Below, one piece after another: positions 8,417 through 15,205 of a DNA stretch of 33,600 nucleotides. The translations under genes were made by a program, and so were the position numbers. The stretch comes from a virus: UHGV virus genome UHGV-1067530. One strand, given 5' to 3'. Each line of letters begins with the position of its first letter. Position 1 is the first letter of the stretch. The notes under the pieces are model-generated. The model worked only from the letters and a program-made list of their open reading frames with translations. It had not been told where the DNA came from and did no database searches.

Positions 8417-9832
8417 ATGAGCGAATTATTTAAACATGCGCACCTTCATGCAGGTCGAACTGAAAATGGTGCTGTAAACCATACTTCATCAATGTCTGCT
8501 CTTGTAGACTTTTACAAAGCTGCTGGTTCAAGCCGTAGCAACGTAGAAATCTTACCAGACCTGTTCTACAAAGCTTTGCGTGAGGATGTTGATGTTGCAG
8601 TTCGTATTTTACTGCATATGCGAGATGTACGAGAAGGTATTGGTGAGCGTAAAGCCTTCAGAACTGTTTTGCTTCAAGCAATTGAAGATAAAGTTTTAGA
8701 GCCTACACAGGTTCTTCGCATTATGGATAAGATTGCAGAACTTGGTCGTTTTGATGACTTCAAAATCTTCGTAGGTACTCGTTTCGAGACAGATGCCTTC
8801 AAACATTTAGAAGCAGCATTACTAGACCCTGCAACAGCAGGTTTGGCAGCCAAGTGGCTACCACGAGTCAAACCACGTCATAAGCAGTTTGTAAAACGTT
8901 TCTGTAAGTTTGCCAACTTGAGTGAGAAAGAGTATCGCACACTGTTGTCTGCGCTCTCTGATACAGTTGAGCAAAAAATCTCTGCTAATGAGTTTGGCAA
9001 GATTGACTACAGTAAGATTCCTTCACTTGCTGCTGCACGTTACCAAAAACTGTTTAACCGCAAAGATGGAGAACGCTACAAAGCTTACATCGAGTCCTTA
9101 TCAAAGGGTGAGACTAAGATTAATGCTGGTGCTGTTTACCCATACGATGTGATTAAGTCTGTTAAGTATGGTAATGCAGATGTTGCTAATGAGCAGTGGA
9201 AAGCACTACCAAACTGGATGGCAGAGGGTGAAAACATTCTCTGTATGTCTGATGTTTCACGTTCAATGTCTTGGGTGAATTTTGGCTCCATTACTACTCT
9301 GGATATTGGTGTATCACTTGCATTGTATGTAGCAGAACGCAATACAGGTTGCTTTAAAAATGAGTTAATGGTTTACTCAACAAACCCTCACTTCATCGAA
9401 CTGAGTGGTGATTTACGAAACCGTCATCGTCAGGTGATGCGGCACGTTGAATATGGCTCAACTAACTTACAAGCAGCTTTTGACCGTATTCTTGAGACAG
9501 GTAAAAGAAATAACTTGACTCAGAAAGATATGCCAAGTAAGCTTATCATCTTCTCAGATATGGAGTTCAATCAGGTTGATGGAGCTAACGGTCGCACAAA
9601 CTTTGAAGCAATCCAGAGTAAGTACAAGAAAGCTGGATACGAAATGCCACAACTGGTATTCTGGTACTTAGCAAACCGTAATGGTACTTGCGAAGTATCT
9701 GTTAAGGATAACGGTGTAGCAATGGTATCTGGTTTCTCTCCAGCCACTTTAAAAGCTCTGCTTGGTGGTGAGAAGTTTGACCCTATCAGCGTAATGCTCA
9801 AAGCAGTAATGATTGACCGTTATATCTGGTAA
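8417..9832 (+). CDS. vWA-domain protein with N-terminal alpha-helical domain; possibly Ro60/TROVE-like (DUF2828-type)
   Basis: MIDAS motif in ILCMSDVSRSMS (DxSxS), downstream YGSTNL (T) and LIIFSDMEF (D) at vWA-typical spacing; N-terminal ~270 aa has no motif I recognise; the TROVE assignment is inference. Confidence 0.55.
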   Translation: MSELFKHAHLHAGRTENGAVNHTSSMSALVDFYKAAGSSRSNVEILPDLFYKALREDVDVAVRILLHMRDVREGIGERKAFRTVLLQAIEDKVLEPTQVLRIMDKIAELGRFDDFKIFVGTRFETDAFKHLEAALLDPATAGLAAKWLPRVKPRHKQFVKRFCKFANLSEKEYRTLLSALSDTVEQKISANEFGKIDYSKIPSLAAARYQKLFNRKDGERYKAYIESLSKGETKINAGAVYPYDVIKSVKYGNADVANEQWKALPNWMAEGENILCMSDVSRSMSWVNFGSITTLDIGVSLALYVAERNTGCFKNELMVYSTNPHFIELSGDLRNRHRQVMRHVEYGSTNLQAAFDRILETGKRNNLTQKDMPSKLIIFSDMEFNQVDGANGRTNFEAIQSKYKKAGYEMPQLVFWYLANRNGTCEVSVKDNGVAMVSGFSPATLKALLGGEKFDPISVMLKAVMIDRYIW

Positions 9833-9850
9833 AAAGTTTTAAAAAGGGTA

Positions 9851-9879
9851 TTGACAATGTGTTTGATACCCTTTAATAT
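9851..9879 (+). promoter_or_regulatory. Putative sigma70-like promoter heading the tRNA array
   Basis: TTGACA (9851-9856), 17-nt spacer, TAATAT (9874-9879); the -35 sits inside the inverted repeat GGGTAT...ATACCC. Confidence 0.45.
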
Positions 9880-9941
9880 GTTCTACATAGAAACGAAACG
9901 AGAGCTTTTCTAAGATACTGAAAAATATTTTAAAAAAGTTC

Positions 9942-9971
9942 TTGACAATCACTAAAAAATAATGTTAAAGT
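9942..9971 (+). promoter_or_regulatory. Putative second promoter upstream of tRNA-Pro
   Basis: aaaaaagttcTTGACA, 18-nt spacer, TAAAGT; same architecture as the 8348 promoter. Confidence 0.35.
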
Positions 9972-9997
9972 GGTTACATAGAGTTTGAAAAGTTTAT

Positions 9998-10074
9998 CTC
10001 TGTTTAGCTCAGCTTGGTAGAGCGTTCCGTTTGGGGCGGTAAGGCCGGAGGTTCAAGTCCTCCAACAGAGACCA
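9998..10074 (+). tRNA. tRNA-Pro (anticodon TGG)
   Basis: Acceptor CTCTGTT/AACAGAG, D-arm GCTC/GAGC, anticodon loop TTTGGGG, T-arm GGAGG-TTCAAGT-CCTCC, encoded CCA. Confidence 0.8.
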
Positions 10075-10081
10075 AATTAAT

Positions 10082-10159
10082 GTTCCAGTAGACAAAATGG
10101 TATAGTCACCACTCTTTCAAAGTGGATATTTGAGGGTTCAAATCCCTTCTGGAACGCCA
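10082..10159 (+). tRNA. tRNA-Glu (anticodon TTC)
   Basis: Acceptor GTTCCAG/CTGGAAC, anticodon stem CCACT/AGTGG, loop CTTTCAA, T-loop TTCAAAT, CCA. Confidence 0.8.
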
Positions 10160-10162
10160 GTT

Positions 10163-10239
10163 TTGACAGAAGACCAATTACAGCAAACTTAATCTTATTC
10201 ATCTGAAGGTAAATCGGACAAAGAAGAGATTTGGTCTGG
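10163..10239 (+). repeat. Inverted-repeat-bounded element, copy 1 (TTGACAGAAGACC-AA-TTACAGCAA ... TTGGTCTGG)
   Basis: 5' box CAGAAGACC + TTACAGCAA, 3' box GGTCTGG; termini AGACCAA/TTGGTCT are complementary. Confidence 0.6.
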
Positions 10240-10251
10240 TCATTAAGAATT

Positions 10252-10327
10252 GCGGGTATAGAGAAAGGGCGTCTCACATGTCTCATTAGCATGGTATCGG
10301 CAGGTTCGACTCCTGCACCCGCCTCCA
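10252..10327 (+). tRNA. tRNA-Met/Ile2-like (anticodon CAT), slightly irregular acceptor/T-stem register
   Basis: Acceptor GCGGGTA, D-arm GAGA/TCTC, anticodon stem CATGT/GCATG, loop CTCATTA, T-arm GCAGG-TTCGACT-CCTGC; 3' strand ACCCGCC pairs with a 1-nt offset. Confidence 0.5.
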
Positions 10328-10329
10328 AA

Positions 10330-10397
10330 TTTACAGAAGACCGTTTACAGCAATATTTATTAAATTTTTAGCGGAAAAATTGAAAGATGTGGTCTGG
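10330..10397 (+). repeat. Inverted-repeat-bounded element, copy 2 (TTTACAGAAGACCGTTTACAGCAA ... GGTCTGG)
   Basis: 5' 27 nt identical to copy 4; internal AT-rich hairpin AATTTTT/AAAAATT. Confidence 0.6.
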
Positions 10398-10410
10398 TAA
10401 TACTAAACAT

Positions 10411-10487
10411 GGTTAGGAAGCACATAAGGTATGTGCGGTCGCCTGTTAAGCGAATGGCACAGGGTTCGAATCCCTGACTAACCGCCA
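10411..10487 (+). tRNA. tRNA-Asn (anticodon GTT)
   Basis: Acceptor GGTTAGG/ACTAACC, D-arm GCAC/GTGC, anticodon loop CTGTTAA, T-arm CAGGG-TTCGAAT-CCCTG, discriminator G, CCA. Confidence 0.75.
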
Positions 10488-10556
10488 AATTTAGGAGAGA
10501 AGCGATTGCTCACCGATTTGTAAGGTGCAAGTCCTTAGCCTGAATAGAAATTAAAT

Positions 10557-10644
10557 GTGTCGTTATCCCGTAGATGGTAGCGGTGGGGACTGTAAATCCC
10601 TTGTCATTGAGACTCGGTAGGTTCGACTCCTACACGGCACACCA
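10557..10644 (+). tRNA. tRNA-Tyr (anticodon GTA), long variable arm
   Basis: Acceptor GTGTCGT/ACGGCAC, anticodon loop CTGTAAA, ~15-nt variable arm, T-arm GTAGG-TTCGACT-CCTAC, CCA. Confidence 0.7.
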
Positions 10645-10649
10645 ACAAA

Positions 10650-10727
10650 GGTTATGTAGTTTAATTTGGTTAAAATACTCCCCTGTCACGGGAGATGATG
10701 AGGGTTCAAATCCCTTCGTAACCGCCA
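10650..10727 (+). tRNA. tRNA-Asp (anticodon GTC)
   Basis: Acceptor GGTTATG/CGTAACC, anticodon stem CTCCC/GGGAG, loop CTGTCAC, T-loop TTCAAAT, CCA. Confidence 0.75.
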
Positions 10728-10788
10728 ATTTTGAGAGGGCTATTTAGCCCCTCCCTTAAAGAGTTCTTACGAGTATTCTTTAAAGGAG

Positions 10789-10862
10789 CAGAAGACCAAA
10801 TACAGCAAGTTACTTAAAATTTCAAGCCAATTTAATTTTGAAAAATTTAAAACTTGGTCTGG
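10789..10862 (+). repeat. Inverted-repeat-bounded element, copy 3 (CAGAAGACC-AAA-TACAGCAA ... TTGGTCTGG)
   Basis: Same terminal boxes; interior is a long AT-rich imperfect hairpin (CAAGTTACTTAAAATTTCAA / TTGAAAAATTTAAAACTTG). Confidence 0.6.
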
Positions 10863-10871
10863 CTCAACAAA

Positions 10872-11006
10872 TTTACAGAAGACCGTTTACAGCAAAACTT
10901 AAACAATCTATTTCTCGGTAAAGAAAAGGAGAAGGTTCGATTCCTTCACTCGGCAGGTGTCGAGTTGGTGTAATGGTAGCACTTAAGATGATAAACAACG
11001 GTCTGG
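10872..11006 (+). repeat. Inverted-repeat-bounded element, copy 4 (TTTACAGAAGACCGTT ... AACGGTCTGG), containing tRNA-like fragments
   Basis: 8-bp terminal complementarity AGACCGTT/AACGGTCT; interior holds a T-arm (GAAGG-TTCGATT-CCTTC) followed by a D-arm-like segment. Confidence 0.6.
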
Positions 11007-11007
11007 T

Positions 11008-11151
11008 AATTATCTTTGTAGATAAGTTATTAAGCTTACCTGTGAGTATGCGACCACAAAGGGTGAAAGGGTAAATTCTAGATTTAAACCCAAAAAGGCA
11101 CATCGCTACAGACCTTAAGCAAGTCTGGGTAGCTTATCTACAAAGATAATT
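11008..11151 (+). repeat. 19-bp perfect inverted repeat (AATTATCTTTGTAGATAAG / CTTATCTACAAAGATAATT) flanking 106 nt
   Basis: Read directly: 11008-11026 is the exact reverse complement of 11133-11151; the interior contains CAGACC...GTCTGG. Confidence 0.7.
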
Positions 11152-11155
11152 TAAT

Positions 11156-11231
11156 GGAAGTGTAGCAGAATGGTGATGCGGCAGACTTTTAATCTGACAG
11201 GCGATGGGTTCGAATCCCTCCACTTCTACCA
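11156..11231 (+). tRNA. tRNA-Lys (anticodon TTT)
   Basis: Acceptor GGAAGTG/CACTTCT (G1-U72 wobble), anticodon loop CTTTTAA, T-loop TTCGAAT, discriminator A, CCA. Confidence 0.7.
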
Positions 11232-11235
11232 ATAT

Positions 11236-11312
11236 GGTTCAGTCGCAGATAAGGTAATGCAAGGGTCTCATAAGCCCTATGAATGTGGGTTCGATTCCCA
11301 TCTGAACCTCCA
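11236..11312 (+). tRNA. tRNA-Met or Ile2 (anticodon CAT)
   Basis: Acceptor GGTTCAG/CTGAACC, anticodon stem AGGGT/GCCCT, loop CTCATAA, T-arm TGGG-TTCGATT-CCCA, CCA. Confidence 0.75.
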
Positions 11313-11314
11313 AT

Positions 11315-11389
11315 TGTGGGTTAGCATAAATGGTAATGCAAACGGCTGATAACCGTTAGAAGAGGGTTCGATACCCTCACCTACAACCA
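11315..11389 (+). tRNA. tRNA-Ile (anticodon GAT)
   Basis: Acceptor TGTGGGT/ACCTACA, D-arm GCA/TGC, anticodon stem AACGG/CCGTT, loop CTGATAA, T-arm GAGGG-TTCGATA-CCCTC, CCA. Confidence 0.75.
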
Positions 11390-11404
11390 ATTTCAATAAA
11401 GTTG

Positions 11405-11433
11405 TTGACATTGAGATGTGACTACTTTATAGT
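11405..11433 (+). promoter_or_regulatory. Putative sigma70-like promoter inside the tRNA array
   Basis: aaagttgTTGACA (11405-11410), 17-nt spacer, TATAGT (11428-11433). Confidence 0.45.
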
Positions 11434-11439
11434 AACTAA

Positions 11440-11726
11440 AATACTTCAGAATATGTATAATTCAAACACCAATACATGAGCGTTAGACGTAACACAATGT
11501 GGGGAAATTTGTTGTACATATTCTGAATAGTTTTCGTTGCGTAGCGTCTATTTTGCAAATTTAAAATAAATGCAAACGACAATGTTTTTCTGGCAGTAGC
11601 TTGATAGGCTAAACACCAGTGAGGTCTTCCAATCCCTCATCAAAGAATTTGGCGTACTAGCCCACGGTATGATTAATAAGGTGGGCATCTTTAAGGGCTT
11701 TCTAAGAGAGTCTTTAAAGATAATTA
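11440..11726 (+). ncRNA. Candidate structured non-coding RNA region (ORF-free, multiple hairpins)
   Basis: No ORF of 60 aa or more; 13-bp perfect inverted repeat TTCAGAATATGTA (11445-11457) / TACATATTCTGAA (11515-11527); hairpins GCCCAC...GTGGGC, TGAGG...CCTCA, TTTGCA...TGCAAA; sits downstream of the 11405 promoter. Confidence 0.35.
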
Positions 11727-11808
11727 CGGGGCGTATCTCAGCGGTCTTCTAAACCGCCGTTAACCGAGTAAGTGGAGTATGCGGGTTCGAGTCCTGCCGC
11801 CTCGACCA
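11727..11808 (+). tRNA. tRNA-like, Arg(TCT)-type anticodon arm, atypical (no canonical D-arm, 23-nt segment before the T-arm)
   Basis: Acceptor CGGGGCG/CGCCTCG, anticodon stem GCGGT/ACCGC with loop CTTCTAA, T-arm GCGGG-TTCGAGT-CCTGC, discriminator A, CCA; the D-arm 3' strand is not identifiable. Confidence 0.45.
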
Positions 11809-11950
11809 ATTAGTTAGCAGATTACTTAGACGACCTAAGCGGGTCTTCCTGTAGGGAGGTGGTCTGTATCTCATGTTTTCCAGAACATGTAAATAATCTG
11901 AGAAGGGGCTTTACAGTGTTGAGATAATACGGTAAGCTTCGAATTATAGT

Positions 11951-12033
11951 ATGGGACGATGTTAAGACTCTAAGGCATGAGCAACGGCTTCCAACACCGT
12001 TTCAAAGGGGTTCAACTCCTCCGTCCCATGCCA
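11951..12033 (+). tRNA. tRNA-like, Trp(CCA)-type anticodon loop, atypical (7 extra nt in the D region)
   Basis: Acceptor ATGGGAC/GTCCCAT perfect, hairpin ACGGC-TTCCAAC-ACCGT, T-arm AGGGG-TTCAACT-CCTCC, discriminator G, CCA; D region is 26 nt. Confidence 0.4.
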
Positions 12034-12046
12034 AAGTCTTATTAGG

Positions 12047-12134
12047 GGTAGGTAGCGGCTAATGGTAGCCAAACTGTCTTGAAAACAGTTGCCACTGTAG
12101 AGATACGGTGAGGGTTCGACTCCTTTACTTACCG
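12047..12134 (+). tRNA. tRNA-Ser (anticodon TGA), long variable arm; CCA not encoded
   Basis: Acceptor GGTAGGT/ACTTACC, anticodon stem ACTGT/ACAGT, loop CTTGAAA, ~20-nt variable arm, T-arm GAGGG-TTCGACT-CCTTT, discriminator G. Confidence 0.7.
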
Positions 12135-12137
12135 CCT

Positions 12138-12391
12138 AATAAGATTTAAAGCCAAGCTTCATTCGGATGTCGCTTTGGTATCCCGCGTGTATTGTCGTAC
12201 ACACTGATAAAACACCTAGTAGGTGTCACGGAGAAGAGATAATATCAAGCTCTCCAAAGGTTCTAGTCACCGGATTAAACAAGACTATGCAAAGACCTTT
12301 TTAGGTCTTTTTAGAGGGCTTCTAAGGTTATTACAGCTTGTTGTGGAACCTTGTTGCTTAGGTTCTTAGAAGTTCTCTAAAAAGATTTAAT
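12138..12391 (+). ncRNA. Candidate structured non-coding region (hairpins, terminator-like stem, long CTTCTAAG/CTTAGAAG hairpin)
   Basis: ORF-free; hairpins GTGTA...TACAC, ACACCTA...TAGGTGT, GGAGA...TCTCC; AAAGACC-TTTTT-AGGTCTTT followed by a T-run (about 12288-12312); inverted repeat CTTCTAAG (12320) / CTTAGAAG (12365). Confidence 0.3.
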
Positions 12392-12469
12392 GGGAGATTG
12401 ACGGTAATTGGTAAACCTACCATCCTTAGAAGTTGGTGTTTGAGGGTTCGAATCCCTTGTCTCCTACCA
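12392..12469 (+). tRNA. tRNA with Leu-type anticodon TAG but short (5-nt) variable loop
   Basis: Acceptor GGGAGAT/GTCTCCT, anticodon stem CCATC/GTTGG (one U-U), loop CTTAGAA, T-arm GAGGG-TTCGAAT-CCCTT, discriminator A, CCA. Confidence 0.55.
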
Positions 12470-12476
12470 AATTAAT

Positions 12477-12552
12477 GCAGGTGTAGCAAAATGGTTATGC
12501 GGCTGACTCTTAATCAGTAAGACGATGGGTTCAATTCCCTCCACCTGTACCA
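12477..12552 (+). tRNA. tRNA-Lys (anticodon CTT)
   Basis: Acceptor GCAGGTG/CACCTGT, anticodon stem GCTGA/TCAGT, loop CTCTTAA, T-loop TTCAATT, discriminator A, CCA; close paralog of the 11156 tRNA. Confidence 0.7.
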
Positions 12553-12558
12553 GACATT

Positions 12559-12634
12559 TGGGTCATAGTTTATATGGTTAAAATTCGAGTTTTGCAAACT
12601 TGGGAACTGAGTTCAATTCTCAGTGACTCCACCA
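12559..12634 (+). tRNA. tRNA-Ala (anticodon TGC)
   Basis: G3-U70 wobble present in the acceptor (TGGGTCA/TGACTCC), anticodon stem CGAGT/ACTTG, loop TTTGCAA, T-arm CTGAG-TTCAATT-CTCAG, discriminator A, CCA; 1-72 is unpaired (T/C). Confidence 0.7.
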
Positions 12635-12640
12635 ATTAGT

Positions 12641-12715
12641 GCATCCATAGTTTAAACGGGAAAATTACAGTCTTCCAAACTGAGGTTGAGGGTTCGATTC
12701 CCTCTGGATGCTCCA
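12641..12715 (+). tRNA. tRNA-Gly (anticodon TCC)
   Basis: Acceptor GCATCCA/TGGATGC perfect, anticodon loop CTTCCAA, T-arm GAGGG-TTCGATT-CCCTC, CCA. Confidence 0.75.
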
Positions 12716-12721
12716 AACAAT

Positions 12722-12798
12722 GCTGCTTTCGTATAATTGGCTATTACACATCCCTTGTAAGGATGGAAATGCAGGTTCGAGTCCTGTGAGCAGCACCA
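12722..12798 (+). tRNA. tRNA-Thr (anticodon TGT)
   Basis: Acceptor GCTGCTT/GAGCAGC, anticodon stem CATCC/GGATG, loop CTTGTAA, T-arm GCAGG-TTCGAGT-CCTGT, discriminator A, CCA. Confidence 0.8.
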
Positions 12799-12799
12799 A

Positions 12800-12893
12800 T
12801 TCAGAGGTCAAGTGAAAGACCGCTGGTGTCAACTGAAGACCGTAACAAATTCCACGGAGTTGAGTTAGCGGCACAACTTCAGACCTCTTTCAC
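12800..12893 (+). repeat. Repeat/palindrome-rich spacer related to the CAGAAGACC element family
   Basis: CTGAAGACCGTAACA (12836-) resembles the 5' box; AGAGGTC...GACCTCT and CTGAAG...CTTCAG inverted repeats. Confidence 0.4.
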
Positions 12894-12968
12894 ACTCGCT
12901 TAGTTTATATGGTAAAACATCACCCTTACAAGATGAAGAAAAAGGTTCAAGTCCTTTAGTGAGTACCA
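12894..12968 (+). tRNA. tRNA-Val (anticodon TAC)
   Basis: Acceptor ACTCGCT/AGTGAGT, D-stem GTTT, anticodon loop CTTACAA, T-arm AAAGG-TTCAAGT-CCTTT, discriminator A, CCA. Confidence 0.65.
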
Positions 12969-12969
12969 T

Positions 12970-13047
12970 GTTCCAGTATCCCAATTGGCAGAGGATGCAA
13001 GCTCAAACCTTGTATTAGTGACGGTTCGAATCCGTCTTGGAACACCA
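12970..13047 (+). tRNA. tRNA with Leu-type anticodon CAA but short (6-nt) variable loop
   Basis: Acceptor GTTCCAG/TTGGAAC, D-loop AATTGGCAGAG, anticodon stem TGCAAG/CTTGTA with loop CTCAAAC, T-arm GACGG-TTCGAAT-CCGTC, discriminator A, CCA. Confidence 0.55.
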
Positions 13048-13065
13048 ATTTAAAGAGGCTATTTA

Positions 13066-13623
13066 ATGAGATATTTGAAGTATGCTTCATGGATTTTCTT
13101 AGCTTTACTAGACCCAATTGCAGCAATCCTAGCAGTTATCTTAGCACCTTTCGTAGTTCCATTCTACAGTGAGAAGAAAGGACATCTACCTTTTGGATTC
13201 AGATGGATGGAGACCTATGACAACCCGATTGATGGTGACGAAGGTCACGTTAAAAGATGGGCTAAGATTAGAAAGATTGGTAAGCTGGGTGTCTACATGC
13301 AGAGAGTTGGGTGGCTCTGGAGAAACAAAGCTTATAACTTCTCTTACCATGTATTAGGAAGAGATGTAAAAGATGTTACTAAGTGGAGAGGTAATATCAA
13401 CGTAAGTTCTGACCCTGAAGATAATCAGACTGGTTATCTCCTAATGTGGAACAACAATGCTTGGGGATTATTCGCTTTTATTCCGTCAATTAAAGTCTTT
13501 GGTAAACAGTTTTACTGGAGAATTTATGTTGGATGGAAACTAAAAAGTGTTGTCCCAGAAGAAAGAGCATTCTCAAGGGAAAGAGTTATGTTGGCATTCT
13601 TTATTCATCCACTGAGAAAGTAA
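13066..13623 (+). CDS. hypothetical membrane protein (185 aa) embedded in the tRNA array
   Basis: ORF with RBS aaagagg upstream; N-terminal hydrophobic helix WIFLALLDPIAAILAVILAPFVVPF; Trp/Arg-rich remainder. Confidence 0.6.
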   Translation: MRYLKYASWIFLALLDPIAAILAVILAPFVVPFYSEKKGHLPFGFRWMETYDNPIDGDEGHVKRWAKIRKIGKLGVYMQRVGWLWRNKAYNFSYHVLGRDVKDVTKWRGNINVSSDPEDNQTGYLLMWNNNAWGLFAFIPSIKVFGKQFYWRIYVGWKLKSVVPEERAFSRERVMLAFFIHPLRK

Positions 13624-13631
13624 AGATTTAA

Positions 13632-13707
13632 AGGGGATTAGTTTACAAGGTTAAAACCTCGGTCTTTGAAATCGAAGAAGTTGGTTCAATTCCAACATCC
13701 CCCGCCA
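13632..13707 (+). tRNA. tRNA-Gln (anticodon TTG)
   Basis: Acceptor AGGGGAT/ATCCCCC with unpaired 1-72, discriminator G, anticodon stem TCGGT/ATCGA, loop CTTTGAA, T-arm GTTGG-TTCAATT-CCAAC, CCA. Confidence 0.7.
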
Positions 13708-13709
13708 AT

Positions 13710-13788
13710 GCTCCATTACTCCAATTGGCAGAGAGGCCAGACTTAAAATCTGTGTTATGTATCGGTTCGAATCCGATATGGAGTACCA
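13710..13788 (+). tRNA. tRNA with Leu-type anticodon TAA but short (7-nt) variable loop
   Basis: Acceptor GCTCCAT/ATGGAGT, D-loop AATTGGCAGAG, anticodon stem CCAGA/TCTGT, loop CTTAAAA, T-arm ATCGG-TTCGAAT-CCGAT, discriminator A, CCA. Confidence 0.55.
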
Positions 13789-13793
13789 ATTTT

Positions 13794-13869
13794 AGCGGTA
13801 TAGCATAACTGGCAATGCAGCAGTCTCTGAAGCTGTCCTATTAAGGTTCAAATCCTTATGCCGCTGCCA
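13794..13869 (+). tRNA. tRNA-Gln (anticodon CTG)
   Basis: Acceptor AGCGGTA/TGCCGCT, D-arm GCAT/ATGC, anticodon loop CTCTGAA, T-arm TAAGG-TTCAAAT-CCTTA, discriminator G, CCA. Confidence 0.7.
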
Positions 13870-13900
13870 CTTCTAAGGGTTCTTACGAGAGTCCTTAAAT

Positions 13901-13976
13901 GTGGCCTTATCATAAACGGTAATGACCCATGCTGTGAACATGGTCTATACGGGTTCAAATCCCGTAGGTCACCCCA
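13901..13976 (+). tRNA. tRNA-His (anticodon GTG)
   Basis: Acceptor GTGGCCT/AGGTCAC, D-arm TCAT/ATGA, anticodon stem CCATG/CATGG, loop CTGTGAA, T-arm ACGGG-TTCAAAT-CCCGT, discriminator C, CCA; position -1 is T, not G. Confidence 0.8.
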
Positions 13977-13981
13977 ATTTA

Positions 13982-14058
13982 TAGTCCAAGTAGCTTATAT
14001 GGTTAAAGCGCGTGTCTGAAAAACATGAGAAGAGGGTTCAAATCCCACTGGACTACCA
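13982..14058 (+). tRNA. tRNA-Phe (anticodon GAA), acceptor register slightly irregular
   Basis: D-arm GCTT/AAGC, anticodon stem CGTGT/ACATG, loop CTGAAAA, T-loop TTCAAAT; acceptor TAGTCCA/TGGACTA pairs perfectly but leaves a 4-nt linker before the D-stem. Confidence 0.6.
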
Positions 14059-14074
14059 ATTTCAAAGGTGCTTA

Positions 14075-14809
14075 ATGAAAGAGATGACAGGACAAGGTAA
14101 GGAGATTTTTAATCTCTTAAAAACCGGTAAAGGGTTTTCTAACCCACTTATTACTGGTGCAGCAGTTCTCGGTGGAACCGTAGCTGCCTCTACATCACTT
14201 GTAAGCTCTATTAGCTCTGTAACAGACCCGACAATGAATGAGAAACTTGTTGCTGCTGGACTTACAACAGTCCTTCTAAACAGCTTTACAACAAGCCTGA
14301 CAAGCACTACAGCAACTACTAAGACCCTAACAGACTATGGTCAAAAGTCTATTGATGAGTTTTCATCACGTATGCAGGTAGCAAAGGGGTATTCCAATGT
14401 TATGGGTGCAGCAGGAGAACAAGTTGGTTGTACACCATTCAGTGGTATTATGGGTGTTGCTACAGAGTATGGTCAAAAAGCTATTGACATGATTAACAGC
14501 ACACTAGACAGTGTTAACGGTGTGTTAAGTGACTTACAAGACGCTATTGATAAGGGTCTTGATACTGTTTCTGATTTAGCTAATCAAGCTGTTAGCAAGA
14601 TTAATGAAGGTATCTCAAAGATTACAGCTTATGCAGATGAAGTTGTGCAGATGATTGAAGAAGAAGCTGCCCTTATTGCAGAGTACCTTAAAACGAATAT
14701 CAATGGGTTCTTAGCAGGTATCTTACCAGACTGGTTTGATGATGCTCGCAAAACTGGTGTAATCGACACTATTGCAACACCAGAAATGAAGAACGCATTA
14801 CAGAAATAA
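14075..14809 (+). CDS. hypothetical Ser/Thr-rich protein (244 aa)
   Basis: The ORF track starts at 14012 inside tRNA-Phe; first ATG with an upstream aaagg RBS is 14075 (MKEMTGQ...); S/T-rich N-half, helical C-half. Confidence 0.55.
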   Translation: MKEMTGQGKEIFNLLKTGKGFSNPLITGAAVLGGTVAASTSLVSSISSVTDPTMNEKLVAAGLTTVLLNSFTTSLTSTTATTKTLTDYGQKSIDEFSSRMQVAKGYSNVMGAAGEQVGCTPFSGIMGVATEYGQKAIDMINSTLDSVNGVLSDLQDAIDKGLDTVSDLANQAVSKINEGISKITAYADEVVQMIEEEAALIAEYLKTNINGFLAGILPDWFDDARKTGVIDTIATPEMKNALQK

Positions 14810-14810
14810 T

Positions 14811-14903
14811 GGAAGATTAACCCTAAAAGGTAAGGGAGCAGTTTGCTAAACTGCCAGTAGCTGAGAAATCGGTGTACCAGTTCAAGTCTGGTATCTTCCT
14901 CCA
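14811..14903 (+). tRNA. tRNA-Ser (anticodon GCT), long variable arm
   Basis: Acceptor GGAAGAT/ATCTTCC perfect, D-stem CCC/GGG, anticodon stem GCAGT/ACTGC, loop TTGCTAA, ~20-nt variable arm, T-arm ACCAG-TTCAAGT-CTGGT, CCA. Confidence 0.8.
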
Positions 14904-14907
14904 ATCT

Positions 14908-14983
14908 GAATCCGTGACAGAAATGGATATGTGCCTGTCTGCAAAACAGGTTTATAAGGGTTCAAGTCCCTTCGGATTCTCCA
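14908..14983 (+). tRNA. tRNA-Cys (anticodon GCA)
   Basis: Acceptor GAATCCG/CGGATTC perfect, anticodon stem CCTGT/ACAGG, loop CTGCAAA, T-arm AAGGG-TTCAAGT-CCCTT, discriminator T, CCA. Confidence 0.8.
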
Positions 14984-15020
14984 AGTTATTTTACTCTCTC
15001 TCAATTAAAATAATAATAAT

Positions 15021-15080
15021 GCCCTGCTATAAGTATTCTTCCTTTCGCTACCGAAGAGTATTTTTAGACAGGGCTTTTTT
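15021..15080 (+). terminator. Putative intrinsic terminator closing the tRNA array
   Basis: Outer stem GCCCTG (15021-15026) / CAGGGC (15069-15074) enclosing an inner hairpin, followed by TTTTTT. Confidence 0.45.
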
Positions 15081-15145
15081 ACAGAGTTATACTTTATAGG
15101 AAGACTTATACAGTATGTCTCTGACGTACATTGTGGTTTCTCCTT

Positions 15146-15169
15146 GACGGTCTCTGTGCCGTCTTTTTT
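15146..15169 (+). terminator. Putative intrinsic terminator or attenuator upstream of the packaging operon
   Basis: Stem GACGG/CCGTC with loop tctctgtg, followed by TTTTTT. Confidence 0.45.
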
Positions 15170-15205
15170 AAGGGGAAACAAGATTTATTATTTGGAGAAA
15201 ACATA

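Follow-up and report, generated by a model that had tools for sequence, protein, structure and literature searches.

What does a virus encode in some 290 nucleotides that hold no sizeable reading frame and no tRNA, and that follow directly on a promoter-like sequence inside a tRNA gene cluster? The question is raised by positions 11440 to 11726 of the viral genome UHGV-1067530, of which 33,600 nucleotides were analysed (hereafter the window; all features described lie on its + strand). Its source is a Felix O1-like myophage, and over 11390-12046 the window is 100% identical to the Salmonella phages Mushroom, VSe11 and others. A preliminary description of the locus, made from the letters alone, had proposed a phage small RNA and, as one possibility should the vWA protein be Ro60-like, a Y-RNA-like partner. 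We conclude that ~11440-11726 encodes one non-coding RNA, and that its core (11528-11686) is very probably homologous to the coding piece of a two-piece transfer-messenger RNA (tmRNA) of the beta-proteobacterial type, without the acceptor strand and without the T-arm. The best explanation overall, to which we give a probability of about 0.5, is a tmRNA coding piece devoid of a tRNA-like domain and acting through the trans-translation of the host. By definition a tmRNA unites the functions of tRNA and mRNA in a single particle; the exceptions known so far (phage DS6A, organelles) keep the tRNA-like half, and here the message half is kept instead.

A structured RNA gene within a tRNA cluster

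The locus lies within a cluster of 24 tRNA genes (9998-14983, as seen by Rfam and ARAGORN), and neither program calls a tRNA within 11440-11726. Open reading frames of 25-48 amino acids at most are present on the two strands, in agreement with the initial view of an ORF-free stretch. The 13-bp perfect inverted repeat already noticed there is exact, 11445-11457 (TTCAGAATATGTA) being the full complement of 11515-11527 (TACATATTCTGAA), and the structured character ascribed to the region is borne out by its predicted folding: 11434-11810 reaches -113.6 kcal/mol, against -87.2 +/- 5.4 for shuffled sequences (z = -4.9), none of 100 shuffles being as stable.

The sequence TTGACA-17-TATAGT, which had been taken for a promoter, outranks every other sigma-70-like site in 9800-15200, matching at 11 of 12 positions. 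The scan of the region shows no general enrichment of such sites (12 against 11.1 expected), and support for the promoter comes instead from its recurrence at the same place before homologues in unrelated phages: a near-consensus TTGACA-16/17-TAnnnT stands directly 5' of the homologues in Sf13, Panisse, BUCT610, swi2 and pIS4-A. Conservation of structure among related phages, proposed at the outset as a check, is strong, with compensatory pairs in both the core and the 5' hairpin. The earlier idea of a phage small RNA is supported, in the form of an apparently promoter-driven, structured and conserved non-coding RNA gene; a Y-RNA-like identity is not.

The transcript is predicted to run on into the next tRNA-like gene (11727-11808), and the 3' end of the RNA is probably set by RNase P cleavage before that element. 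An Hfq-type base-pairing small RNA was considered, given the seed-like 5' motif described below, and was rejected: there is no terminator-like site in 11440-11830.

Likeness of the core to tmRNA coding pieces

The Rfam scan suggested in the preliminary description did return RNA families, but these were tmRNA families only, all below threshold, and neither Y_RNA nor YrlA was among them. This was so in a permissive scan over 11449-11725, and every tested member of the family formed by the RNA and its homologues likewise has sub-threshold matches to RF00023, RF04321, RF01849 and RF01850 over the tag region, and to nothing else. The scores stay well below the gathering thresholds (11-15 bits against 47 for RF00023, 18-26 against 47 for RF04321, 15-17 against 84 for RF01850). 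At a lowered threshold ARAGORN reports the tag ANDNVFLAVA together with a 'resume consensus'.

A hidden Markov model of the family, run against 1.35 Mb, had as its two best non-family matches the tag regions of two tmRNAs, one from a jumbo-phage contig (E = 0.004) and the other E. coli ssrA (E = 0.27). The former, a 322-kb contig (IMGVR_UViG_3300037882_003354, hereafter L110), carries, at 336-707 of the extracted locus and on its minus strand, a complete two-piece tmRNA gene of the beta-proteobacterial type (RF01850, 139.5 bits, E = 3e-43), whose coding piece starts GGGGAUGACCAGGUUUUCGAUUGCGCGA, with GGUUUUCGAUUGCG as its D-loop region, and encodes the tag AANDDAYLMAA. The 5' motif of our family is GUUUUCGU, written (U)AGUUUUCGU in an alignment of 25 representatives (A1), in which GTTTTCG (GUUUUCG in the RNA) is invariant; this heptamer is also present in every member that was recovered without the motif as a search term. 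Because the true two-piece tmRNA of L110 has the same motif as its D-loop, we take the family motif for the analogue of a D-loop.

The likeness to two-piece tmRNA (RF01850/RF04321, L110) extends along the molecule. Common to both are the D-loop motif (GGUUUUCGAUUGCG in L110, UAGUUUUCGUUGCG in the window RNA), the resume context AUAAAU in front of GCN AAY GAU GA, a tag of about ten codons with a hydrophobic end and alanine, a stop codon in a hairpin loop, and one or more pseudoknots downstream. The phage RNA differs in having neither the 5' GGGG acceptor strand nor an acceptor piece (T-arm, 3' strand, CCA), and in a pseudoknot-1 region that is shorter or absent. With the one-piece SsrA (RF00023) of the enterobacterial hosts it shares the first 8 nt of the frame (GCAAACGA), U-5/A-4, the tag length and the pattern ANDxxxxxxA, the E. 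coli tag being ANDENYALAA; it differs from SsrA by the lack of any blastn similarity and of a tRNA-like domain, by two pseudoknots in place of four, and by tags that end in LAVA, LMAA or LAAA and not in ALAA.

Positions -7 to -1 before the frame nearly always read xAUAAAU and are followed by a GCA codon. Within this context U-5 and A-4 correspond to U85 and A86 of E. coli tmRNA, positions which reportedly have a functional role there (Williams in 1999 and Lee in 2001 are said to have described it).

A ten-codon frame

The tag frame has no start codon and no Shine-Dalgarno sequence; it opens with an alanine codon and ends with hydrophobic residues and alanine before the stop, after which a second in-frame stop (TAG) follows at 11605-11607. 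In 31 distinct nucleotide versions it is always exactly 10 codons long, and variability is highest at third codon positions. The ratio of non-synonymous to synonymous changes (pN/pS) amounts to 0.61 here, while the two alternative frames give 1.44 and 1.09; ANDDVVLMAA occurs in 7 synonymous spellings, and the replacements that do occur are conservative (D/E, and hydrophobic residues at the C-terminus). Since this apparent selection at the peptide level is seen within a lineage that has no tRNA-like domain, the frame is, as far as its pattern of substitutions tells, probably decoded. An alternative frame initiated at AUG (AUG CAA ACG...) was ruled out, with a pN/pS above 1 and stop positions that vary.

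Helices and pseudoknots

An all-against-all test of column covariation was too noisy, and a search for stacked helices was used instead. The outer helix of a helix-5-like hairpin has compensatory changes in 4 of its 4 pairs, with 96.9% of the alignment cells paired; in the per-sequence folds of most of the 25 representatives the stop codon stands in the loop of this hairpin or beside it. The two helices of the H-type pseudoknot PK2 are paired in 96.7% and 90.3% of the cells, 6 of their 9 pairs having changed on both sides. In the second pseudoknot (PK3), stem 1 is paired in 88.7% of the cells with 3 compensatory pairs, and the loop GAUUAAUAA is conserved; stem 2 was read from the alignments and from an inverted repeat (I6), insertions and deletions having precluded its column scoring. 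Taken together, the four column-scored helices have 92.8% of their cells paired, against 78.9% in shuffles, a value reached by none of 500 shuffles, and 13 of their 19 pairs are compensatory; slid controls give 32-44%. The frequent G-U pairs in these helices fix the strand as +. In the region where pseudoknot 1 would be expected, the candidate helices shift register between lineages, and in Ounavirinae pseudoknot 1 is apparently replaced by a small hairpin.

Two other pairings were tried. A closing helix between a 5' GUGCG and a 3' CGCAC was ruled out, because CGCAC pairs with GUGUG as stem 1 of PK3, and base pairs between the 5' motif and the tag codons of the same molecule, as read from the alignment, number 4-7 only and are not conserved.

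These data bear on the idea that the RNA has no function at all and is either the decaying remnant of a phage tmRNA or a spacer or processing sequence of the tRNA operon. The missing tRNA-like domain and the very variable flanks are what one would expect of a remnant, and the curators of the tmRNA database reject such truncated forms. However, a remnant would hardly keep the same truncated architecture in at least six unrelated phage groups, four helices with compensatory changes, a frame intact in 31 variants and, in many lineages, its own near-consensus promoter, and we find this explanation highly improbable. The coordinates in the window are collected in Table 1.

Table 1. Features of the RNA locus and its surroundings, in coordinates of the window
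Feature	Position	Strand	Details
Protein, Ro60-like by predicted fold	8417-9832	+	471 amino acids; Pfam DUF2828 and DUF7788; PHROG 'RNA-binding protein'
Putative sigma-70-type promoter	11405-11433	+	TTGACA-17-TATAGT; expected transcription start ~11440
5' hairpin domain	11445-11527	+	17-bp outer stem 11445-11461/11511-11527, which includes the 13-bp perfect repeat
Conserved single-stranded motif	11528-11537	+	UAGUUUUCGU; counterpart of the D-loop in the tRNA-like domain of tmRNA
A/U hairpin and resume context	11538-11571	+	11544-11554/11563-11573 (repeat I5); AAUAAAU, with U-5 at 11567 and A-4 at 11568
Tag frame	11572-11604	+	GCA AAC GAC AAT GTT TTT CTG GCA GTA GCT TGA; encodes ANDNVFLAVA and a stop
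Helix-5-like hairpin	11590-11619	+	outer CTGG/CCAG 11590-11593/11616-11619; inner TAGC/GCTA; stop codon in loop
H-type pseudoknot PK2	11620-11652	+	stem 1 TGAGG/CCTCA 11620-11624/11635-11639; stem 2 CCAA/TTGG 11629-11632/11649-11652
H-type pseudoknot PK3	11653-11686	+	stem 1 CGTACT/GGTATG 11653-11658/11666-11671; stem 2 GCCCAC/GTGGGC 11660-11665/11681-11686
3' hairpin (variable 'long-stem module')	11687-11721	+	inverted repeat I2
tRNA-like RNA without D-arm	11727-11808	+	82 nt; CUUCUAA loop (UCU), 7-bp acceptor stem, G3:U70, A73, ACCA end

The missing tRNA-like domain

In no lineage is there an acceptor strand 5' of the D-loop-like motif. What abuts the motif is a promoter, a hairpin, a terminator-like stem or an unrelated module, so that there is no room for a conserved acceptor strand; in the siphophages, Sf13 and Panisse it is a promoter close to consensus, whose end lies 5-10 nt ahead of the motif. 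A tRNA-like domain of the alanylation type (7-bp acceptor stem with G3:U70, T-arm, 3' CCA) was not found for the RNA, nor was an acceptor piece found upstream, in the arrangement of L110, either here or in the homologues. ARAGORN makes no call on the RNA by default, and with -ps80 it makes one only by borrowing the T-arm of the preceding tRNA-Ile. The complete 46.8-kb genome of BUCT610 contains no tRNA, no tmRNA, no element with a T-arm and CCA, and no complement of the 5' domain.

One may nevertheless imagine a functional two-piece tmRNA in which this RNA supplies the coding half, with an acceptor half encoded nearby, at another phage locus or by the host. The homology to two-piece coding pieces speaks for this, as do the T-arm-bearing or oversized tRNA-like elements just upstream of the RNA in phages SP076, Marshall and Panisse, and the G3:U70/ACCA tRNA-like element directly downstream in the window. 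In SP076 (the N4-like phage FSL SP-076, locus L007, ~537-669) a T-arm (TTAGGTTCAACTCCTAA) lies ~30 nt upstream of the 5' motif, and the Rfam permuted-tmRNA model pairs GCUUA with UAAGC after the motif in the manner of helix 2a (25.7 bits). An acceptor stem could not be drawn there, and the T-arm and possible helix 2a may be the vestige of an acceptor piece. Against a working two-piece molecule, no lineage has the 5' acceptor strand that a coding piece must carry, and the whole BUCT610 genome offers no candidate for the acceptor half. The element downstream in the window also turns out to belong to an independent family, whose members in 121Q and phi92, for instance, have ordinary tRNAs as neighbours. 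We regard this alternative as unlikely.

That downstream element (11727-11808) was considered by itself as the missing domain and rejected. Its family is separate and wide, with 263 phage records at 81-90% identity, including 121Q (where it is annotated as tRNA-Leu), phi92, Sugarland, Mydo, Kamaji and the Streptomyces phage BoomerJR. It comprises a linker of conserved sequence (UAUCUCA), an arm of the anticodon type in which the loop CUUCUAA is invariant, a normal T-arm, and a conserved region of 23 nt whose GAG forms base pairs with CUC in the linker (a Streptomyces phage has CGC/GCG instead); 100% of the cells are paired, and of the 20 pairs all are kept and 13 are compensatory. The tRNA model of Rfam gives 31.7 bits with the D-arm deleted, and ARAGORN makes no call. 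Its UCU loop, a 3:70 pair that is G-U in four of seven members, and the presence of a normal tRNA-Arg(UCU) in the same slot in Sf13 and other close relatives are not what one expects of the lost half of the tmRNA-like RNA.

Two further upstream elements, both drawn by eye, are an oversized tRNA-like structure in the Kuttervirus Marshall (locus L001, ~1181-1325), with the acceptor UGCGGUG...CACCGCA and a 140-nt body, and one in the Erwinia phage Panisse (locus L004, 492-664), GGGUGAU...AUCACUC-G-CCA, with an insert of roughly 100 nt. Downstream of the RNA, Marshall also has, again by eye, an element without D-arm (L001, 1664-1733), with a GAAA-capped stem and a G3-A70 mismatch.

How the RNA might act

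Without a tRNA-like domain the RNA cannot be charged with alanine, and it must therefore act via the trans-translation machinery of the host; decoding of the phage frame would in turn require the host Ala-tmRNA-SmpB. We think that the RNA probably hijacks or blocks the rescue system of the host, and a possible point of contact is the 5' motif. In all 25 representatives it can pair over 9-12 contiguous base pairs with nucleotides 95/97-106 of ssrA (codons GAC GAA AAC UA). The comparison was made with E. coli ssrA, whose tag sequence we take to be the same in Salmonella. An energy scan of the phage RNA against ssrA with RNAduplex was dominated by GC-rich chance duplexes and did not discriminate.

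We can imagine the following sequence of events. The RNA would be made from the strong host-type promoter, and its single-stranded 5' motif UAGUUUUCGU(UG) would anneal to codons 3-6 of the tag frame of host tmRNA; as a mimic of the D-loop, the motif may additionally bind SmpB. Annealing would occlude the host template and tether the phage template alongside, and ribosomes rescued by host Ala-tmRNA-SmpB would then resume on the phage frame, so that the tag AANDNVFLAVA would replace AANDENYALAA. We put forward this replacement of the tag (annealing, occlusion and tethering, writing of the phage tag) tentatively, as a possible scenario. In the more specific form of a tag template acting in trans, docked on host codons 3-6 while host Ala-tmRNA-SmpB writes a tag chosen by the phage (...LAVA/...LMAA), the proposal is rather doubtful.

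Several points indeed weigh against a coding piece that works in this way. The absence of any tRNA-like domain is proven for BUCT610 alone, and in some lineages a T-arm or an odd tRNA-like element lies just upstream. The hairpin that overlaps the frame may supply part of the codon-position signal. We know of no tmRNA message domain that works in trans, and an elongating ribosome would normally melt a duplex of 10 bp. The complementarity to the host tag codons could be a coincidence, because the motif is inherited from a tmRNA D-loop and the pairing of its UUCG with the CGAA of GAC-GAA is thus partly built in, and the motif may be a site for SmpB instead; the pairing with ssrA is not conserved beyond ~10 bp, and the Chaseviridae phage SKA49 deviates with its variant GUUUUCU. 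Finally, our literature searches found no expression data for the RNA.

The same features could be read in terms of an inhibitor or decoy that is not decoded at all. The RNA would block the host tag frame in antisense fashion and/or, by mimicking the D-loop, message region and pseudoknots of tmRNA, titrate SmpB, ribosomal protein S1 or RNase R, and it would so shield truncated phage proteins from ssrA-directed proteolysis. An RNA that cannot be charged and that exposes a conserved single-stranded motif complementary to the ssrA tag codons would suit this role, and the D-loop is the main contact of SmpB in the solved structures of the tRNA-like domain (TLD) with SmpB. There is also a precedent in the truncated, inhibitory phage tmRNA of DS6A, a TLD-only form (PMC4131195). 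On the other hand, a pure decoy leaves unexplained the fixed length of 10 codons, the variability of third positions, a pN/pS of 0.61 in the tag frame only, and the conservative D/E and hydrophobic C-terminal replacements; moreover, a block of ribosome rescue would cost the phage translation capacity. We hold such an inhibitor to be possible but somewhat unlikely, and prefer a coding piece that is read with the help of the host.

If the frame is decoded, the message of trans-translation can be delivered in trans, and phages can choose the fate of the proteins of stalled ribosomes; if the RNA is an inhibitor, it represents a new anti-rescue strategy. Should the trans-acting template be true, this would be the first virus to re-programme trans-translation and the first tmRNA message domain to function without a covalently linked tRNA-like domain.

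The Ro60-like protein and the Y-RNA hypothesis

The preliminary description made its Y-RNA hypothesis conditional on the vWA protein being Ro60-like, and the predicted fold argues that it is: the 471-amino-acid protein is modelled as a Ro60/TROVE domain with a vWA domain, and the 12 highest-ranking structures of the PDB are without exception Ro60, Rsr or phage Ro60, including that of phage phiLo. The model has a predicted local distance difference test score (pLDDT) of 88, and the top fold matches extend over the full length with E ~1e-7 and template modelling (TM) scores of 0.5-0.65. A sequence-profile search of the protein against the PDB gave no match, Ro60 being revealed by the comparison of folds only. 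The gene is found in 710 phage records from quite different phage groups, with hosts from many phyla.

According to this hypothesis the TROVE/vWA protein, whose gene lies 1.6 kb upstream, would bind the RNA or its 5' hairpin. The adjacency of RNA and gene in Felix O1-like phages, the long stem with internal loops of the 5' hairpin domain, and a structured RNA in the size range of Y RNA and YrlA (roughly 100-300 nt) are all compatible with it. Phage homologues of Ro60 with nearby Y-like RNAs are known (PMC4201824, PMC12135203), and phage groups with reported Ro60 (mycobacteriophages, Bacillus phage G) are also reported to have tmRNAs. The architecture of the RNA is, however, a different one. 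Neither Y_RNA nor YrlA of Rfam is matched, and whatever can be recognised in the RNA (resume context, tag frame, pseudoknots and the hairpin with the stop codon) belongs to tmRNA; no Ro60-binding stem is formed between its two ends, folding and covariation indicating a linear series of local modules. Nor does the RNA seem to accompany Ro60-like genes outside Ounavirinae: it is present where they are absent, namely in the whole BUCT610 genome and in the regions of lambdoid prophages, and a Chaseviridae locus that does have the hairpin domain (L174) shows no Ro60-like reading frame in 13.5 kb. We therefore consider a Y-RNA-like partner very unlikely. If there is any Y-like RNA here, the downstream element 11727-11808 is a better tRNA-mimicking candidate than the tmRNA-like RNA, and it could be the tRNA-mimicking partner of the Ro60-like protein, as a candidate only.

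Distribution of the family

The family occupies at least 100 loci, in Ounavirinae, Kuttervirus, N4-like phages, Chaseviridae (among them SKA49), siphophages, SSU5-like phage-plasmids and lambdoid prophages; copies stand in more than 600 phage records and in 286 of 5426 E. coli genomes, and the virus families concerned are unrelated. By blastn the part from the tag onward is common to Marshall, SP076, BUCT610, swi2, Aeromonas pIS4-A, Sashavirus and the SSU5-like Cyrano. The E. coli copies belong to lambdoid prophages, where the Q antiterminator gene lies on one side of them and the holin gene on the other, and also to plasmids of ~108 kb; blastn against the E. coli genomes matched prophages and phage-plasmids only, and not the chromosomal ssrA. 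Pattern scans added about 100 viral contigs and prophages of Rosenbergiella, Pantoea, Erwinia, Rouxiella and Pseudocitrobacter. A pattern scan of genome contigs gave mostly AT-rich chance matches, together with six true members, all from Enterobacterales. Horizontal transfer has spread the RNA widely among enterobacterial phages, virulent as well as temperate, and phage-plasmids.

Previous reports and other truncated tmRNAs

Genome announcements mention an 'ssrA' found by ARAGORN in Felix O1 and Moogle, and none in Mushroom (PMC4392139, PMC4319497). On one of our loci (L104, 1824-2572, minus strand) ARAGORN in its default mode calls a 'tmRNA*' of 749 nt with the tag ANDNVFLAVA, stitched together from distant tRNA halves. 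The reported 'ssrA' gene is thus the element of the window, provided with a spurious tRNA-like domain, and Mushroom, being identical to the window in this region, has the RNA too, which accounts for the contradictory statements on the three phages. Before now the RNA was noticed solely as this inconsistent 'ssrA' call; text searches of the literature found neither the tag peptides nor phage tmRNA fragments. It represents a class of RNA genes that the tmRNA, tRNA and Rfam pipelines now in use miss or mis-call, and in several GenBank records 2-4 'hypothetical proteins' are annotated over this RNA.

The closest parallels among tmRNAs are the TLD-only form of DS6A and the mitochondrial and plastid tmRNAs that lack the coding sequence, which are likewise truncated derivatives in a mobile or reduced genome. 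They are, however, its mirror image, with the tRNA-like half kept and the message lost, and the phage RNA is the opposite. Molecules like that of DS6A inhibit host tmRNA (PMC4131195, PMC11915505). The papers on the tmRNA database list phage forms that are complete or TLD-only, truncated ones being rejected (PMC4131195, PMC11915505), and the 2025 paper includes no form with the coding sequence only. The full-length tmRNAs of cluster C mycobacteriophages, Bacillus phage G and jumbo phages are also located in or near tRNA clusters, but, unlike the RNA described here, they are complete and can be charged.

Optional modules and neighbouring elements

The 5' hairpin domain also has conserved internal loops, a middle stem and, at its apex (11480-11495), a stem capped by a GACG loop. 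For the copies of Felixounavirus and Chaseviridae, RNAalifold predicts 29 pairs in it, 8 of them with compensatory changes. It is missing in many Felixounaviruses, in Sf13 and in the siphophages, and is therefore an optional module of the RNA.

Next to the element 11727-11808, an HNH homing-endonuclease frame follows directly in Felix O1 (locus L003, 2955-3311) and several relatives, and the window (11809-11815) is without it; Sugarland and Kamaji also have HNH genes after the same D-arm-less element. A second odd tRNA-like element lies at 11953-12030 (GGGACG...CGTCCCATGCCA), with a T-arm and an apparent anticodon-type loop of 9 nt (CTTCCAACA); its sole Rfam match is a weak one to tRNA-Sec (16.9 bits), and ARAGORN makes no call.

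The 3' side of the RNA is variable, the hairpin of the window at 11687-11721 being replaced in Felix O1 by a different and longer one (L003, 2798-2858). Both belong to a set of repeated long-stem modules found 3' of the tmRNA-like core, and sometimes also 5' of it (loci L002 1620-1950, L006 825-1000, L010 825-920, and L012/L013 540-640 and 820-1000). Rfam matched neither YrlA nor any other family on these neighbouring modules. The modules have conserved arms (…ACAGGTAAGAGCATT … AGTGCTCTTTCCGTTGTGG) around variable interiors; in swi2 and in a prophage copy the interior holds a T-arm (GGCGGTTCGACTCCGC), and Felix O1 has exactly the same module loop, CCCTTATGGGGCTTGGCTTAAATGCA, as an E. coli prophage of the O157 type.

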